This document shows, in pieces, positions 6,883 through 17,510 of a stretch of DNA of 32,000 bases. Within the stretch, counting starts at the first letter, position 1; the number at the start of each line of letters is the position of its first letter. This DNA is from an uncultured Chloroflexia bacterium (lineage in GTDB: Bacteria; Chloroflexota; Ktedonobacteria; Ktedonobacterales; JADMIN01): assembly GCA_963718915.1 (NCBI GenBank), contig CAVRAI010000013.1, positions 270,001 through 302,000 on the forward strand, given 5' to 3'. Below the pieces are notes generated by a model, which searched no databases, was not told the origin of the DNA, and was given only the letters and a program-made list of their open reading frames with translations. The translations under genes were made by a program, and so were the position numbers.

Positions 6883-8007
6883 TTAGGCTGGACATGCCGC
6901 GTAGGCAAAGTCAAAGTACATAACGCCATCGAAGAGGCGGGCGGGTTCTGCATTGATTGGGCTCACTTGCAGCAACAAATTGTCACTCTGCACGACGGCG
7001 TCATCAACGGTGAAGATGTCCTTGCTGTAAGGTTGATCCGAGAAAAGGCTTGTACCATGTGCAGCCAATTGTCGCCGAGGTTCTAGATCAGCTCTAGCAT
7101 CTGCCTCATGAGCAAAGTGCAGTCCAATGAGACCTGAGAGATGTTTCAAGTCATACCGATAACCAAGCCCTAGCCACTCATATGGATGCAGTTCAGCCAC
7201 TCCTGACTTATCACTCTGCAAGATTGTCTGCATCTTTTGAGGAAGTGAGCTTAACGCTGAGCAAACATCTCCGCCCGGCATTATCTCAACAGAGAACAGG
7301 GTTCCCAGTCCGAGAACGAAGTTATGCAGGGTTGAATCGCTGGCAAGGTTAGGCGTTGCATTATTATACGCATCCAAAACCGCATGGATATCAGCCGTGT
7401 TACCAAAGATGAGCATCTTCTGTGTCGCCACAATAGCCGTATTGAGAATCGAATACCCATAGGGGCCGAACCAATCAGTTGAAATAGCTGAATAGTCCGA
7501 ACTACTATAGGTATAGATGGTTGCGCTCCGATACGAACTCGCTTCAAAGCCACGAGAGTTAAAATCTGCAATCAGTTGAGTCAGATTGAAGTCATTTCGA
7601 AGCTTGACGACGTAGGTTTCTATGGAAGAGTTACTGATCCCGGTCAAGGTTGACTCCCACAGATAATCGGTCCCATCAAATGACCAGGTTTTCGCTGGTT
7701 CTGTGAGAAGATCGCTTAGGCCGAACGATGACGCAGGTGCCTGCCGCGTGGCTAATGACGACAAAAACCGCCTGCGATCAGTGTCATTACTTTTGCTGGT
7801 GACGTTTTCAACACCTTCATATTCTTTGATTAGTGACCAGTCAGTGAATGCAAATGATGCTACATTCGCTGGGGCGAACGCGAGGGCTTCGGCTAGATCA
7901 GGTGCCACGGACGAAACAGGCGCTATATTCTGCTGAACACATCCAGAGAGGCCTGCAAGTGAACCAATAAGCACGAGGACTGCAATACACCCGAGTTTCA
8001 TCGACAT
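6883..8007 (-). CDS. Hypothetical lipoprotein encoded in a low-G+C island
   Basis: ORF 6883..8079. GGGAGA directly precedes ATG 8007 and lies 6 nt before ATG 8001. From 8001 the sequence is MKLGCIAVLVLIGSLAGLSGCVQQ, a lipoprotein signal with lipobox LSGC. I recognise no family motif in the remaining ~350 aa. The codon composition is visibly AT-richer than in neighbouring genes. Confidence 0.65.
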   Translation of the reverse strand: MSMKLGCIAVLVLIGSLAGLSGCVQQNIAPVSSVAPDLAEALAFAPANVASFAFTDWSLIKEYEGVENVTSKSNDTDRRRFLSSLATRQAPASSFGLSDLLTEPAKTWSFDGTDYLWESTLTGISNSSIETYVVKLRNDFNLTQLIADFNSRGFEASSYRSATIYTYSSSDYSAISTDWFGPYGYSILNTAIVATQKMLIFGNTADIHAVLDAYNNATPNLASDSTLHNFVLGLGTLFSVEIMPGGDVCSALSSLPQKMQTILQSDKSGVAELHPYEWLGLGYRYDLKHLSGLIGLHFAHEADARADLEPRRQLAAHGTSLFSDQPYSKDIFTVDDAVVQSDNLLLQVSPINAEPARLFDGVMYFDFAYAACPA

Positions 8008-8211
8008 TCTCCCACAGAAAGCAATTGCTTTCACTGATACGCGACAGTTGAAAACAAACAAAAAATCACCGTACCGCAATCAAGCGGATTGTCAGCATTT
8101 ACGACGTCCCCTGACGCATCCCCATTTCGGACACAGGTGACTGCCTGCAGAGAAAGGTCAACGCGCCAGCAACCGAAGCGGTTGTAAGATCGCATGAACC
8201 AAATATATGCT

Positions 8212-12464: not shown

Positions 12465-13379
12465 ATGGCCTATCTGGAAATTCGCATCGGGCAGGAGGTT
12501 CGCCGCATCTCGCTTGACCGCGACCACCTGCGGATAGGACGACTGGCGGACAACGACATCGTGCTGCGCGACGCGCAAATCTCGCGTCAGCATGCGGAGA
12601 TCCGTTTCGCAGCAGGCGAATGGCGCATTCTGGACCTAGGGAGCACCAATGGCCTCCATGTGAAGGGCAAGCGCGTGCGCGAGCACCGCCTTGGCAGCAG
12701 TGACGTACTTCTGCTGGCGCCGGGCGTCACCCTCTCGTTGCACGAAGGCGTCGCGCCACCAGATGCAATCTCGACGGTCGCGAGCGCCGCACAGTCGACC
12801 CATCTGCCTCAATCAGCCGTTGCCCCGGCTGAGCCGCCCGCTGAACCGTCCGCATTCGATATGCTGCACCCACGCTCGCCATTCGCCGACGATGAGCAGA
12901 TCTACATTCCACCAGGCATGGGTGTGCCCGCGCCGCCTACTCATTACAATAAGCCGTATACGCCTGGCGCATATGGGGGTTCGCCAGAGGCTGGCGGATA
13001 TTCACACTTTTCTGAGCAGTCGGCAAACACGACGTCGTCACAGTTTGATACGATTCCCGCCGGTGGATATCCCGCGCCTGTTGGCCCATTGACAAGCGGA
13101 AGCGACGGGCACGATCCATTCCGGCGCAGCAGCGTTAACGCAAACTCCGAGGCTTACCGCGCAACGGCTGGCCCAACCAGTACACTGTTACATGTCTGTC
13201 AGACTTGCGGGCAACTGACGGCGCCTGACTCCGTCTATTGTCAGAGTTGCCATCATTCCGTTGCGCGTGAGTGTCCGAATTGCCGACTGAGTCTCTTACC
13301 GATTCAGGATCGTTGTCCGCGCTGCCAGTCGCCGAACCCTGGGTCTGTACGCCGAGCGCATCGAGCGGCAGGCGCATAG
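12465..13379 (+). CDS. FHA-domain protein with a Pro/Gly-rich linker and a C-terminal double zinc ribbon
   Basis: The N-terminus LRIGRLADNDIVLRDAQISRQHAEIRFAAGEWRILDLGSTNGLHVKGKRV carries the canonical FHA G-R, S-R-x-H and N-G blocks. The low-complexity middle includes PPGMGVPAPPTHYNKPYTPGAYGGSPEAGGY. Four CxxC pairs (CQTC, CQSC, CPNC, CPRC) lie at nt 13197-13325. SD GGAGGG lies 7 nt before the ATG. Confidence 0.85.
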   Translation: MAYLEIRIGQEVRRISLDRDHLRIGRLADNDIVLRDAQISRQHAEIRFAAGEWRILDLGSTNGLHVKGKRVREHRLGSSDVLLLAPGVTLSLHEGVAPPDAISTVASAAQSTHLPQSAVAPAEPPAEPSAFDMLHPRSPFADDEQIYIPPGMGVPAPPTHYNKPYTPGAYGGSPEAGGYSHFSEQSANTTSSQFDTIPAGGYPAPVGPLTSGSDGHDPFRRSSVNANSEAYRATAGPTSTLLHVCQTCGQLTAPDSVYCQSCHHSVARECPNCRLSLLPIQDRCPRCQSPNPGSVRRAHRAAGA

Positions 13380-13393
13380 GCTGCATTTCCCGC

Positions 13394-13423
13394 TTGACGC
13401 GATAGTATACGAGCAGGCACAAT
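13394..13423 (+). promoter_or_regulatory. Candidate promoter for the acidic-protein gene (TTGACG-18 nt-CACAAT)
   Basis: Consensus-like hexamers at 13394-13399 and 13418-13423, just after the FHA stop and about 95 nt before ATG 13521. Confidence 0.3.
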
Positions 13424-13520
13424 ACCGCAGGTACGGACATTTCAAACGCCCCATGTCATTCGAGCGTTTCCGTCCGTTTTCACTGACAACCCGCTGATAA
13501 CCCAGAGGAGGCTGTGTAGC

Positions 13521-13751
13521 ATGCTGTCCACCGACGATGTGACGCTAATCTCATCCGACGTTGCCGCATCCGCATATCTGTTCGCCGGTCCCGACGACGA
13601 TGAGAATCTCGATGATGATTTCGACGACGACATGGATGATGACGACCTCGACGACGAATGGGACGATGAGCTCGATGACGAAGATGAAGAAGACGAAATC
13701 GAGTGGGATGAAGAGGAACTGAGCGATCTAGATGAAGAAGAAATGGAGTAG
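13521..13751 (+). CDS. Small polyanionic protein (76 aa; 42 Asp/Glu; no Lys/Arg/His)
   Basis: SD GAGGAGG (13506-13512) lies 8 nt before ATG 13521. The translation is MLSTDDVTLISSDVAASAYLFAGPDDDENLDDDFDDDMDDDDLDDEWDDELDDEDEEDEIEWDEEELSDLDEEEME. It is followed by a terminator-like hairpin. The overlapping minus-strand ORFs are Ser/Arg low-complexity mirror images. Confidence 0.6.
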   Translation: MLSTDDVTLISSDVAASAYLFAGPDDDENLDDDFDDDMDDDDLDDEWDDELDDEDEEDEIEWDEEELSDLDEEEME

Positions 13752-13823
13752 CACGCGCCGGACTGTCGTTATGCGGCACTATCGGGCCGTACGCCTGCAT
13801 TTCTGAACCGAGGATGCGATGAT

Positions 13824-13871
13824 CGCCTCACCTATCCGGTTTCACCCGGCCGGGTGAGGCGCTTTGTGTTT
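13824..13871 (+). terminator. Candidate rho-independent terminator after the acidic-protein gene
   Basis: A 9-bp stem pairs cgcctcacc (13824-13832) with ggtgaggcg (13853-13861). The 20-nt loop contains self-complementary ccgg elements. It is followed by cTTTgTgTTT. Confidence 0.45.
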
Positions 13872-13894
13872 GAGCGCGCCTGCTCGCTGGGTGA

Positions 13895-13924
13895 TTGACG
13901 AACGCCCTCAGCAGTGGGCATACT
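13895..13924 (+). promoter_or_regulatory. Candidate promoter for the SWIM-protein operon (TTGACG-18 nt-CATACT)
   Basis: Hexamers at 13895-13900 and 13919-13924, about 68 nt upstream of ATG 13992 and just downstream of the terminator-like hairpin. Confidence 0.35.
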
Positions 13925-13991
13925 CGACAGCGACAGAACTGAGCAAGGCGTTGAGGAGTGCTTAGAGACGCCGTAGAGAGAGACCGTACGC

Positions 13992-16247
13992 ATGGCGACA
14001 TCCGAGCAGAGTCCGTCGGCGGCATTGTTGCGACTGCGCGCCGCCGACGTCGTTCGTGTCTGCGGGCTGAACGCCGCTGCGGTCGGACTGGAACTGGCGT
14101 CGAATTACTGTGTCGTGGCCAGTCGCCGCGAAGGCAGTCGTTTGCTGGCCACAGTGATGGCCGGAGCGCCACGCACGGTGTGGGTTGAGGTCACCGATGG
14201 CGTTGAGGCGATGGAGTGGGTGTGTGACTGCGCTCACACGGGGCCACTGGCCTGTGAGCATATCGCCGCGACGCTCTCCGCGTGGATAGCGCACCCATCT
14301 GACTTCCTGGTCAAGGATTCTGAGAACGTTTCTGACGCAGCGCCCGAACCGCCTGCTGAGCGCACGTCCTCGCCTCAGAGTGTTTCCGATAGCGCCACTC
14401 TCGCCATGCCAGGCGTGACAGCTTATAGCGTCGAATCGCTGACTCTCGCCGACGCGCTAGCACGGATGAACGACGCCGATGTGGAAGCGATAGCACGTCG
14501 CATCATCGGGCCAGAAACACCAGGCGATACGGTAAACATCTATCGCACGATTGTTGCAGCGCTTGGCGACCCAGGGCGTCTGCAAGCGCTGCTCAAGCGC
14601 CTCGAACATCCCGCGCGGATACTGCTCACGTTAATAGACCTTGCGGGCGGAGCCATCACTACAGCAGATCTTGAGGGGCTGGCAATCCGTATCGGGCGGC
14701 CATTGAGCGCGGTGCAGAGCGATATCGCAGTTCTGGAGCGGCATGCGCTCGTGCTTCCTAAGTTGCCATCGAGCGCTCCGAGCCACCATGGGCCGGGGGC
14801 AACGTGGCGTCACGTCGCAGGCTGGCGCATAGCCGACGAGGTGCGACAAGCGCACGCACTGTCACTGCCGCTTGAGGCACTGCCCACCCAACGTGAGACG
14901 CGCCTCGCGCCGCCACTCGCCGACCCATCCGGCGCTCCCCCCCATGTTGCGCGTTGTACGCCACGTGCGCTTTGCCTGGCGCTGGCGCTGCTTGCTCATG
15001 CTCCACCCCCGCTCGGTCTACCGCGTGAAATAGCCGCTGTGGACAACGACGCCAGGCCTGTCCTCCAGGGCGCTAGCCCGCTCGCTCCCGGAGAGATTGT
15101 GCCCGGTCGGCTCAACGAACTCGCCCGCAATGCTGGTATCGACGTGGATGCGGTTCGAGTCGCCCGAAGGCTCTTACGCCAGGCGCGCGAGCAACATCCC
15201 GCGCCGCCGATTGCCGATCTGGCGCACGTGCCAGTAGCGGAGCGCCCGCTTGTCCTGCGCAACGCATTCCGGCGGTGGTTGCGTGCTGACTCCGTGGCCG
15301 AGTTGCTCGATCTCGAAGCGTCCACGGATCTTCATGTACGCTATGCGACGACACATCCAGCGTTTCGCCCGGCGGCGATTGCCAGTGAGGTAAGCAACGC
15401 GCGTCGATTTATAGCCCGCCTGCTCACTCAAACTCACCCGGACACCTGGTACTCACTTGAGGATTTTGTCACGCTGGTGTGGCAGATTCGCCCAGGGCTG
15501 CTACGCGGCCAGCAGCACACCTGGGCCACACCTGCCTGGTGGTTGGAGTCTGCCAACGAGAAGCGGACATTGCAGCCAACTGTACGCGACGACTGGATGG
15601 CAGCGGAAGGCGCATTCATCCTATCACTGCTTACCCGTACCTTCGCCGTATGGGGCGCGCTTGATCTGGCCGTGCGCGAGGATCGCTCGACGGTCGCCTT
15701 TCGCCTGACGTCATTCGGCGTGTTCTTGCTTCAGCGCGCCAATGATCCAGCGGATGCCTCGCTAGCGGCGTTATGCGACTCCGATTGGGGACCTCCGGTG
15801 TTGCCGCTTCGCGAGGGTGTGCTGGCGGTGCAGCCGCTGGCTGCTGGGATCACTCTGCTCGACGCGCTGGCTCTCTGGGCAAACCCAACGGCGGTGAACG
15901 GGAAGCGCCTCATCTATACACTTTCGTCTGACCGCGCTTGCGCCGCTTTCGATCAGCAACTCTCGCCCGCATCACTGATTGCCATGCTTCGTCCACTGCA
16001 TAGCCGGGCAGCCGAAAACATCGCCAGTCAGTTGACCCAGTGGCAGGCGGAGTGGGGACACACACGCATCACGACTGGATTCACCTTGCTGGAAGCGAAC
16101 GATGAGGCGACGCTGGTAGAGGCGCTGTCTGCCGCTCCTGATATCGCCGCGCGCTGCCGCCGCATCGGGCCGACGCTGGCGCTGGCGCATCCCAGCGATG
16201 CTGAGATCCTTCGCACGCTGCTCGCGCGGCGCGGCTTCACCGTGTAA
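13992..16247 (+). CDS. SWIM zinc-finger protein with a C-terminal XPB/Ssl2-N-terminal-like (helicase-associated, DRD-like) module; no ATPase motifs
   Basis: CxCx7CxH at aa 78-90 (WVCDCAHTGPLACEH, nt 14223-14261) follows the usual SWIM-family N-terminal region. The C-terminal ~145 aa (nt 15813-16244) are paralogous to the C-terminus of the next ORF and resemble the XPB N-terminal domain as I recall it. No GxxxxGK[ST] is present. Confidence 0.7.
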   Translation: MATSEQSPSAALLRLRAADVVRVCGLNAAAVGLELASNYCVVASRREGSRLLATVMAGAPRTVWVEVTDGVEAMEWVCDCAHTGPLACEHIAATLSAWIAHPSDFLVKDSENVSDAAPEPPAERTSSPQSVSDSATLAMPGVTAYSVESLTLADALARMNDADVEAIARRIIGPETPGDTVNIYRTIVAALGDPGRLQALLKRLEHPARILLTLIDLAGGAITTADLEGLAIRIGRPLSAVQSDIAVLERHALVLPKLPSSAPSHHGPGATWRHVAGWRIADEVRQAHALSLPLEALPTQRETRLAPPLADPSGAPPHVARCTPRALCLALALLAHAPPPLGLPREIAAVDNDARPVLQGASPLAPGEIVPGRLNELARNAGIDVDAVRVARRLLRQAREQHPAPPIADLAHVPVAERPLVLRNAFRRWLRADSVAELLDLEASTDLHVRYATTHPAFRPAAIASEVSNARRFIARLLTQTHPDTWYSLEDFVTLVWQIRPGLLRGQQHTWATPAWWLESANEKRTLQPTVRDDWMAAEGAFILSLLTRTFAVWGALDLAVREDRSTVAFRLTSFGVFLLQRANDPADASLAALCDSDWGPPVLPLREGVLAVQPLAAGITLLDALALWANPTAVNGKRLIYTLSSDRACAAFDQQLSPASLIAMLRPLHSRAAENIASQLTQWQAEWGHTRITTGFTLLEANDEATLVEALSAAPDIAARCRRIGPTLALAHPSDAEILRTLLARRGFTV

Positions 16248-16271: not shown

Positions 16272-17510
16272 ATGCCGACAGATGACGCGAAAGCCGCGCC
16301 GGACCTTGAAGAGGCTGTCACCTTTCAGCGCGACCTGTATCTCTACTGGTGGGCCGCGCGCGAACTTGGCGAACTTGCGCTGACCTCGCGTGGCTTCCTC
16401 ACTCGCCATTCACTACGACGGGTGCGCTCCCAGTGGCCAATAGCGGGGGACGACCGTCCCGAGGCGAACGATCCACGGCGCTACTACCTCCGGCGACTGC
16501 TGGAGCGCCTGGGACTCTTGCGCGTGCTATCCGAGCCATCTAATGCATCGGCGCATGGCGGGCTGGTGGCGGCGGACACCCAGATGATGGAGCGCTTCCT
16601 TGCCCATCCACTCTCAGAGCGACTGCGCATCTGCACGCGCCTCTGGGTAGGAGGCGGCTGGTGGCCCGATGGCAAGCCATCGAGCGTTGCCATCGGATTG
16701 CACTCGCCCATTCAGCCCCGCATCGCGCTGGCGCGTCGGCGTCTGATCGAGATACTGGCCGTGCTGGAGCCGGGGAGTCTGGTCGAGATTCCAGGCGTCC
16801 TATTGGTTGAGGACCACGCGCCGCGCATTATCGGCGCAACGACGCGCCGCAAGCCGCGAGATATCGCCGACGAACGCAACGAGACAATGCGTGCGGCATT
16901 AGCAGGGCCGCTTCAGTGGATGGGGCTTGTCGTCAGACGTGACACCAACGGATCGGGAGAACGGCTGATGGTAGCGAGCCACGGCATGCTGGCGCTGCGC
17001 AGCGAATCGGACGACACGACAGTCCAAGAATCCCCTGGACGGGTCATCATCCAGCCCAATCTGGATATCGTGGCCTACCAGCCACTCACCGCGCCAACAC
17101 TTTCCACGCTGGATAGCTGCGCCACACGTCGTTCACTGGATCGTGTCGCACACTATCGCCTGACCGGGAACGATGTGACGCGGGCACAACACGATGGCTG
17201 GTCGGAAGACGATATCGCACGGAGGCTGGAGGCGCTCACAGAAGGTCCGCTACCGGGCAACGTCCGCGTGCGTCTGGCCGACTGGACACGCGCCGCCAGC
17301 CGCATCCGCCTCACTCCACAGGTGACGTTGCTGTCCACCTCAACTCCGGCGCTGCTCGATACGCTGCTCGCGGACCGCGCCGCGCGTGGATGGGTGCTCC
17401 GCCGCATGGGGCCAACACTGGCGCTGGTGCAGACAGACAAACTCGAATCACTACGTCACTGGCTGCTGGCGCGCGGCGAATTGCCGGCGGTTGAGTCTGC
17501 TGAGCCATGA
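16272..17510 (+). CDS. Paralogous helicase-associated (XPB/Ssl2-N-terminal-like) domain protein without a helicase core
   Basis: ATG 16272 lies 24 nt after the upstream stop and is preceded by GAGAGGAAG. The C-terminal ~155 aa (nt 17037-17507) read GRVIIQPNLDIVAY...VAHYRLTGNDVTRAQHDGWSEDDIARRLEALTEGPLPGNVRVRLADW...RRMGPTLALVQTDKLESLRHWLLARGELP. They align by eye with the end of the 751-aa protein (RRIGPTLALAHPSDAEILRTLLARRGF). No Walker A motif. Confidence 0.65.
   Translation: MPTDDAKAAPDLEEAVTFQRDLYLYWWAARELGELALTSRGFLTRHSLRRVRSQWPIAGDDRPEANDPRRYYLRRLLERLGLLRVLSEPSNASAHGGLVAADTQMMERFLAHPLSERLRICTRLWVGGGWWPDGKPSSVAIGLHSPIQPRIALARRRLIEILAVLEPGSLVEIPGVLLVEDHAPRIIGATTRRKPRDIADERNETMRAALAGPLQWMGLVVRRDTNGSGERLMVASHGMLALRSESDDTTVQESPGRVIIQPNLDIVAYQPLTAPTLSTLDSCATRRSLDRVAHYRLTGNDVTRAQHDGWSEDDIARRLEALTEGPLPGNVRVRLADWTRAASRIRLTPQVTLLSTSTPALLDTLLADRAARGWVLRRMGPTLALVQTDKLESLRHWLLARGELPAVESAEP

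Follow-up and report, generated by a model that had tools for sequence, protein, structure and literature searches.

Within the 32,000-nucleotide stretch of DNA analysed here (the window; positions 270,001 to 302,000 of contig CAVRAI010000013.1 from an uncultured Chloroflexia bacterium), a gene on the + strand at 13521..13751 (ATG 13521 to TAG 13751) encodes an extremely acidic protein of 76 amino acids and, together with the preceding gene for a protein with an FHA domain and a double zinc ribbon (FHA-DZR), forms a conserved two-gene module. The reality of the acidic gene, its expression signals, the predicted disorder of its product, the hydrophobic pattern of the latter and the genomic linkage to FHA-DZR are established. 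From our point of view, the product, being disordered and polyanionic, could act in trans on the FHA-DZR protein as its partner or regulator, an explanation that we regard as plausible, if somewhat short of probable. For a conserved, separately transcribed bacterial polyanion gene tied to an FHA signalling protein, the libraries and literature that were searched contain no described counterpart.

The acidic protein consists of MLSTDDVTLISSDVAASAYLFAGP (24 residues), which carries a docking-like motif (MLSTDDVTLI...FAGP, residues 1-24), and of a 52-residue Asp/Glu tail (residues 25-76) with isolated Leu, Phe, Met and Trp residues. As an earlier note on this DNA had read from the letters, 42 of the 76 residues are acidic (27 Asp and 15 Glu, corresponding to 55% of the protein), Lys, Arg and His are entirely absent, about three-quarters of the tail is Asp/Glu (39 of 52 residues), and the tail hydrophobics are found at L30, F34, M38, L43, W47, L51, I60, W62, L67, L70 and M75. 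Both Cys and the motif FYDLN are absent from the sequence.

Judged by its pattern of sequence change, the open reading frame (ORF) is a genuine coding gene under protein-level selection, far beyond what chance would produce, because its frame is kept, substitutions are concentrated at codon position 3 and indels stay in frame. A word-indexed search of 5.8 billion proteins returned 16 homologues of 58-98 aa, one of which is named as originating from a Ktedonobacterales metagenome-assembled genome (MAG). In their alignment, M1, L2, S3, D6, T8, L9, I10, G23, P24, E46, W47, D49 and E50 are invariant, with further conservation at position 51 (F/L) and at W62. Codon alignment of orthologues from six related loci gave, as examples, 11/9/42 and 13/12/43 differences at codon positions 1/2/3, and every indel among them was in frame, with zero frameshifts. 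Moreover, 49 distinct syntenic acidic ORFs (62-126 aa) were recovered, all 49 with a GGAGG-type Shine-Dalgarno (SD) sequence 5-12 nt ahead of the start codon. The syntenic counterparts and the in-frame maintenance that the earlier note expected of a real gene were hence both found. Two overlapping reading frames were considered and rejected, namely a +2-frame ORF, since the substitutions sit at the third position of the + frame, and an antisense ORF at 13480-13800, since the variable third position of the + strand is its second codon position.

It can further be observed that the DNA of the tail contains imperfect tandem repeats of 24-27 nt (8-9 codons; window 13598-13697) and that the tails of orthologues differ by in-frame blocks, 14 aa being deleted in P0016, for example, and 5 aa in P0006. 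Taken together, these two observations suggest that tail length evolves through repeat slippage.

The signals for separate expression lie where the earlier note had placed them. The strong SD sequence GAGGAGG (13505..13511, +) is located 9 nt ahead of the ATG, and a consensus scan finds a promoter-like TTGACG-N18-CACAAT (13394..13423, +) that begins right behind the FHA-DZR stop codon. Here, the block GCTTGACG-N9-ATACGAGCAGGCACAATACCGCAGGTAC, also given as GCTTGACG...CGAGCAGGCACAATACCGCAGGTAC, is kept in all seven closest loci while its flanks vary. Behind the gene, folding and conservation point to a terminator-like hairpin, CGCCUCACC...GGUGAGGCG, that is followed by CUUUGUGUUU (13824..13871, +). 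The hairpin (13824-13861) plus CUUUGUGUUU folds with -27.1 kcal/mol (z = -4.05; 0 of 200 shuffles fold equally well); it is kept in L005 and L007 and, with a compensatory exchange of T:A for C:G, in L006, while L004 has different hairpins in its place. A second promoter-like element, TTGACG-N18-CATACT (13895..13924, +; from scan and conservation), precedes the next gene, which codes for a 751-aa protein with a SWIM-like motif; its TTGACG and GGCATACTC are kept in six of the seven close loci, with a variant in L004. Because promoter, SD sequence, terminator and the separate downstream promoter are conserved, the proposal of the earlier note that the acidic gene is a monocistronic unit finds comparative support in the window's clade. 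In more divergent clades, the acidic stop codon is located just 7-70 nt from the next gene.

The gene is narrowly distributed, being restricted to the lineage of the Ktedonobacterales (Chloroflexota), of which it is found in soil members. When 1.84 billion representative proteins were searched exhaustively with an HMMER profile, only 11 matched, all from one close family, and a profile widened with the divergent syntenic ORFs gained just three sequences; what ties the divergent clades to the window's protein is therefore synteny, architecture and composition, while sequence homology is not detectable. No usable match to Pfam (E<=0.01 for the window's protein, E<=10 for the 16 family members), NCBIfam, PHROGs or PADLOC was obtained for the acidic protein or its family, as the Pfam scan at E<=10 returned chance-level matches only (Nop14, and FYDLN_acid with E=7.3). 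A PDB sequence search with the acidic family profile likewise gave chance-level matches only, an Rfam search of 13200-14100 gave zero matches, and the family was not found in the literature on SWIM/Helicase_C_3 proteins, bacterial p52, FYDLN or Ktedonobacter FHA proteins. As such, the acidic protein belongs to no described family, yet it is of a known functional kind.

This kind is that of disordered interaction modules. AlphaFold2, supplied with a 17-sequence family alignment, modelled the acidic protein with a mean predicted local distance difference test (pLDDT) of 60.6 and a predicted template-modelling score (pTM) of 0.21; the model has zero beta strands and just one helix, a short one at residues 64-75. 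Intrinsic disorder is accordingly the prediction for this protein. The earlier note had imagined a heptad-like spacing that would put a single hydrophobic stripe on a highly negative helix. Neither idea holds, since the hydrophobic periodicity of the window's protein peaks at 85 degrees (a period of ~4.2 residues) and has only weak power at 100 degrees, the value of an alpha-helix, and since the only helix in the model is the one at 64-75; the amphipathic-helix/heptad model was consequently rejected. The hydrophobic regularity of the protein is matched by only 5 of 5000 shuffles. Across 49 distinct tails with 2527 residues in total, Asp/Glu account for 72.5% and Leu/Phe/Trp/Ile/Met/Val for 17%, and just 16 residues are Lys, Arg or His. 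Hydrophobic spacings of 3-5 make up 67% in these tails versus 32% in shuffles, spacings of 1-2 are depleted (8% versus 33%), and the power peak lies at 85-90 degrees. What the tails show is best captured as a polyanionic chain along which single hydrophobic or aromatic anchors are evenly spread. Being Asp/Glu-rich, predicted to be disordered and equipped with non-clustered anchors, the protein has the features of an acidic disordered interaction module of the 'acidic exposure' type, which is a functional class and not a homology family.

Which neighbour the acidic ORF follows was assessed from two sides. A profile of the 751-aa (SWIM) family led to 23 genome loci, almost all of them titled as MAGs of Ktedonobacterales or other Chloroflexota (one is titled Proteobacteria), and 21 of these have usable upstream sequence. 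A profile of FHA-DZR led to 54 metagenome loci containing the zinc-ribbon end, 48 of which are assessable downstream. Seen from FHA-DZR, an acidic ORF is present 120-320 nt downstream in 42 of the 48 loci, and this gene order is kept down to ~40% FHA-DZR identity. Seen from the SWIM gene, the acidic ORF is found immediately upstream in 12 of the 21 loci, even at 35-45% identity of the 751-aa protein, with FHA-DZR also upstream in 10 of these 12, and the other nine loci have neither an acidic ORF (with 8-14 kb covered) nor FHA-DZR. Behind the acidic ORF of the FHA-anchored loci, the SWIM gene is adjacent in 20 cases and located behind an inserted S-adenosylmethionine (SAM)-methyltransferase-like gene in three, and it is absent within 0.5-3.5 kb in ~10 loci that have both FHA-DZR and the acidic ORF. 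Because of the co-occurrence in 42 of 48 loci, the persistence of the pair in SWIM-less loci and the joint absence of both from nine SWIM loci, the acidic ORF tracks FHA-DZR more faithfully than the pair formed by the SWIM gene and the Helicase_C_3 (HelC3) gene behind it, in a comparison between sets that were ascertained differently and among loci that are phylogenetically non-independent. For the idea of the earlier note that the acidic protein regulates neighbouring DNA-recognition proteins, this weakens the SWIM pair as the target, the acidic ORF co-varying with FHA-DZR instead.

One could imagine the following way of action for a polyanionic partner of FHA-DZR. The short non-acidic N-terminus (MLSTDDVTLI...FAGP, or acidic-x-(T)-L-hydrophobic followed by G-P in its general form) would dock the acidic protein onto its partner, which in the window's clade could occur through phospho-Thr8 bound in the FHA pocket. 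The Asp/Glu tail (~72% D/E and near-zero K/R/H) would stay unfolded, with Leu, Phe or Trp exposed to the solvent every 3-5 residues, and would wrap basic or hydrophobic surfaces, such as the zinc ribbons and perhaps the neighbouring p52-like proteins. By competing with nucleic acid or protein ligands, the tail would then gate the signalling output of FHA-DZR, which may often be directed towards the SWIM/p52-like module behind it. Physical binding, phospho-dependence and nucleic-acid competition are the steps that we infer here.

Several observations weigh against this explanation. The acidic gene has its own promoter and is separated from FHA-DZR by a gap of 120-320 nt, and adjacency is not co-transcription. 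An acidic ORF was not found in six of the 48 assessable FHA-DZR loci, and two of the SWIM-anchored loci (L010 and L021) have the acidic ORF beside the SWIM gene with no FHA-DZR upstream. Loci without the acidic ORF form three basal branches and one clade when the 751-aa family is placed in a neighbour-joining tree, which means few events of gain or loss, and the co-occurrence counts are therefore not independent. Charge complementarity also fails to single out FHA-DZR, which with an isoelectric point (pI) of 6.7 and a net charge of -2 is not strongly basic. The SWIM (751-aa) protein has a pI of 6.1 and a net charge of -10, the HelC3 (412-aa) protein a pI of 9.3 and a net charge of +4, and on these values the idea of a very basic neighbour, to which the acidic protein could be the chaperone that the earlier note had also considered, was rejected. 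Lastly, Thr8 is invariant in the window's clade, but L063 has Ser in its place and several clades lack it, and the +3 position is variable. As Thr8 is hence clade-limited, docking of a phospho-Thr in the FHA domain is possible, on the strength of the sequence, for the window's clade and is not established for the family.

A different reading, which we consider doubtful but which fares best among the alternatives, is that the acidic protein mimics DNA or another nucleic acid and acts as a competitive inhibitor or regulator of the SWIM/p52-like and Helicase_C_3 pair, or that it is a subunit of a four-gene FHA-DZR/acidic/SWIM/HelC3 system. The acidic ORF does lie directly 5' of the SWIM gene in 12 of the 21 SWIM-anchored and in 20 of the FHA-anchored loci, the gaps of 7-70 nt in several divergent clades are operon-like, L010 and L021 retain this pair without FHA-DZR, and the p52/Tfb2-like, winged-helix-rich fold predicted for the SWIM protein makes a DNA-associated role plausible. 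However, nine SWIM/HelC3 loci do without an acidic ORF across 8-14 kb, while in ~10 loci the acidic ORF accompanies FHA-DZR and a SWIM gene is missing from the vicinity, and the acidic and SWIM genes of the window's clade are set apart by a terminator and a further conserved promoter. Furthermore, the net charge of the SWIM and HelC3 proteins does not differ between loci with and without the acidic ORF, and the protein, as modelled by AlphaFold2, would have no fixed fold to display its carboxylates in a DNA-like geometry.

It is less likely still that the polyanion works independently of any partner, for example as a buffer for cations (Mg, Ca or other metals) or as a 'Hero'-like protein that protects against aggregation or desiccation, in which case its position next to FHA-DZR would be historical. 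Such a role would be in line with the extreme charge and predicted disorder, with the strong SD sequence and own promoter, which suggest abundant independent expression, with the fast evolution of the tail via repeat-like in-frame indels and with the occurrence of the family in soil metagenomes. Composition alone would, however, not require the conservation of the N-terminal motif, G-P, W47, F/L51 and W62, nor would it explain why the FHA-DZR gene order is kept to ~40% FHA-DZR identity.

Already largely refuted, and with next to no probability left, is the reading of the ORF as something other than a functional protein, whether an attenuator of the leader-peptide type that responds to the supply of Asp/Glu-tRNA or a product of chance in low-complexity GAY/GAR DNA: a GAY/GAR codon run followed by a terminator hairpin upstream of other genes, as well as imperfect 24-27 nt repeats in the DNA, might recall such cases, but leader peptides have ~14-30 codons, precede genes for the biosynthesis of the very amino acid that they sense and end in a stop codon right next to alternative terminator/antiterminator hairpins, whereas here there are 76 codons, a hairpin that starts 73 nt past the stop codon, downstream genes that are not for Asp/Glu biosynthesis and have a promoter of their own, and conservation at the protein level (aromatics, N-terminal motif, third-position substitutions and in-frame indels), and an antisense ORF at 13480-13800 would carry most substitutions at its second codon position.

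The acidic gene is located in a housekeeping chromosomal neighbourhood and not in a phage or defence island. The order of genes, which close relatives share, is RluD-like pseudouridine synthase, PIG-L deacetylase, NAD(P)HX repair enzyme, FHA-DZR, acidic ORF, 751-aa protein, 412-aa Helicase_C_3 protein and a convergent PMT-type glycosyltransferase, in agreement with the flanks that the earlier note had assigned, an FHA/zinc-ribbon gene on one side and a SWIM/XPB-N-like pair on the other. The FHA-DZR gene (12465..13379, +) encodes 304 aa with an FHA domain (Pfam, 1.4e-18), a disordered linker and, at the C-terminus, a double zinc ribbon (DZR), whose match at 1.7e-5 falls short of the Pfam cut-off; the canonical phospho-Thr-binding residues of the FHA domain (G-R, S-R-Q-H, T-N-G) and all Cys residues of the zinc ribbons are retained. 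Its long linker contains short motifs that are conserved to 40% overall identity (SPFADDExPYxPPG, GGYPAPxGPxxSG and DPFRR) and that look like docking motifs.

In four of the six FHA-DZR loci in which no acidic ORF was found (L042, L071, L074 and L076), the next gene after FHA-DZR is a conserved ORF of ~140 aa (MGLSIGMQGE...AEEHTAAHFGAGGVHVFGTPMMIGLME), which by eye looks like a hotdog/thioesterase-type protein. In one clade, the SAM-methyltransferase-like gene (VVDVGCGTG motif) stands directly behind the acidic ORF (L055 4284-5384; L040 4651-5865; L057; L060), either between it and the SWIM gene or, as in L040, with no SWIM gene after it.

The 751-aa gene (13992..16247, +) codes for an N-terminal SWIM-like CxC...CxH motif, a winged-helix array and a C-terminal Helicase_C_3-like domain. 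The window's protein itself has zero Pfam matches, and within its family weak matches are found to Helicase_C_3 (4 of 16, best 6.7e-5) and SWIM (3 of 16, best 0.01); PDB sequence searches with the SWIM family profile and with the HelC3 protein sequence gave chance-level matches only. The confident AlphaFold2 model of the 751-aa protein (pLDDT 82, pTM 0.69) has its best Foldseek/PDB matches in 8ebs_D (E 5e-8), in chain 7zs9_2 of the yeast preinitiation complex and in 6trs_B (p52-p8; E 6e-4), and matches XPB-containing chains more weakly. Owing to a different arrangement of the domains, the TM-scores reach only 0.15-0.26. Given the chain lengths and 6trs, the cryo-EM chains would be p52/Tfb2, and the predicted fold of the 751-aa protein accordingly appears to resemble that of TFIIH p52/Tfb2. 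Homologues of p52 were stated not to be found in bacteria in a 2012 paper (PMC3353954). The SWIM-like motif is intact in the window (C78, C80, C88 and H90; window 14221-14261, residues 76-90), but only W76, C78, C88 and H90 are invariant in the family, the second Cys being replaced in several members (e.g., L012 and L021), so that zinc binding may be lost in a part of it. The gene also has an unusual leader (in window 13895-13991, which includes the promoter-like element) of ~70 nt, in which a GGAGG ~50 nt ahead of the ATG and a AGAGAGAGACC element immediately in front of the start are both conserved; the annotated start codon might deserve a check. In every locus that reaches past the 751-aa gene, it is paired with the gene for the 412-aa Helicase_C_3 (XPB-N-terminal-like) protein (16272..17510, +; PF13625, 5.4e-17).

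Elsewhere in the window, a 398-aa ORF without a Pfam match (6883-8079, -) coincides with a dip in GC content (7001-8000, 48% versus ~61% elsewhere) between the genes for a glycerol-3-phosphate acyltransferase and a CDP-alcohol phosphatidyltransferase. As these flanking genes are directly adjacent in relatives (L002 and a JGI contig), the ORF is possibly a recent insertion.

What could be learned from the locus goes beyond the gene itself. With just two small proteins, the module represents a compact system for studying the part that an N-terminal motif and aromatic anchors play in directing a disordered polyanion to its target, and for identifying what such a polyanion competes with. Since the frequent neighbours of the acidic gene are predicted to fold like p52/Tfb2, the locus could in addition shed light on how XPB-p52-type modules arose. 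One could even speculate, by analogy and with very little confidence, that the acidic, FHA/zinc-ribbon, SWIM + p52/Tfb2-like and XPB-N-terminal-like proteins are the parts of a single bacterial module that is under phospho-regulation and has a mechanism analogous to that of the TFIIH core; in this module, the polyanion would act like the acidic, Trp/Phe-anchored segments (XPC, TFIIE-alpha, p53) that recruit or gate TFIIH. If true, this would provide a bacterial precedent for acidic 'activation-domain'-type recognition on p52-like scaffolds.

Among the known systems, the p8/Tfb5 subunit of TFIIH, an alpha/beta protein of ~70 aa that pairs with the C-terminal domain of p52, shares only its size and the p52-like neighbour with the acidic protein, and an identity with it was rejected given the lack of a Pfam match and an AlphaFold2 model of low confidence and without beta strands. 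The structured DNA mimics Ocr, ArdA, DMP12, SPO1 Gp44 and CarS are likewise small and acidic and occupy the DNA-binding sites of their targets (PMC3643605, PMC8208478, PMC2926617). Most of them have a defined fold with a DNA-like geometry of carboxylates, whereas the acidic protein is predicted to be disordered; a stable fold of this type was not seen in the model (pLDDT 60.6, pTM 0.21), and the searches returned zero sequence relatives in the PDB and zero matches in PHROGs or PADLOC.

FYDLN_acid proteins (PF09538/TIGR02300), themselves uncharacterised, combine zinc-ribbon-like CxxC pairs with a tail of roughly 50% Asp/Glu in one polypeptide, and the zinc ribbons of FHA-DZR followed by an acidic protein from the next gene resemble a split version of this layout. 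The acidic protein is not a member of that family, as only one of the 16 family members matches, at E=7.3, and the FYDLN motif is absent. GarA and OdhI offer a parallel for the FHA side, since there a phospho-Thr motif in a disordered N-terminus is bound by an FHA domain; the likeness lies in a canonical FHA domain that adjoins a disordered protein with a clade-invariant N-terminal Thr. In GarA/OdhI, however, both parts belong to the same polypeptide while here they are encoded by two genes, the Thr is not conserved family-wide, and no kinase gene is present within the window.

With regard to the anchors, the p62/Tfb1-binding motifs of TFIIH partners (TFIIE-alpha, p53 TAD2 and XPC) are Asp/Glu-rich and disordered with isolated Trp, Phe, Leu or Val anchors, and the binding of the TFIIE-alpha acidic domain and of p53 to TFIIH has been described (PMC2275666). 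The comparison spans eukaryotes and bacteria and can only be an analogy: the neighbour of the acidic gene is predicted to fold p52-like, but no p62/Tfb1 PH-domain protein is evident at the locus. The even dispersal of hydrophobic residues in the acidic protein does match the 'acidic exposure' idea.

Stand-alone polyanionic disordered proteins are well studied in eukaryotes, with DSS1 and prothymosin-alpha as examples, and in bacteria the well-studied cases are fused tails, as in the delta subunit and SSB. The acidic C-terminus of the RpoE delta subunit of Firmicutes and the tails of SSB and T7 gp2.5 are disordered polyanions that compete with nucleic acid for basic channels and carry interspersed or terminal hydrophobic or aromatic residues. 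They are fused to a folded domain, while the acidic protein is the product of a gene of its own; neither a HARE-HTH nor an OB domain was found in it by Pfam or NCBIfam, and its N-terminal part comprises only 24 residues.

In eukaryotes, DSS1 and CSNAP are small, highly acidic intrinsically disordered proteins of PCI complexes (PMC8442969). With 70 aa, DSS1/Sem1, a subunit of BRCA2, proteasome-lid and TREX-2 complexes, is similar to the acidic protein in size, acidity and disorder. It carries a few conserved Trp/Phe anchors within its runs of Asp/Glu. The two differ in that the acidic protein is bacterial, has a much higher charge density (55% versus roughly 40% Asp/Glu) and starts with a distinct N-terminal motif, and none of the 16 acidic family members matches DSS1_SEM1 (PF05160) at E<=10. 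DSS1 acts only when bound to larger winged-helix or OB-fold proteins, and it is such small acidic disordered partners, DSS1/Sem1 among them, that the acidic protein would by analogy resemble most closely in function.

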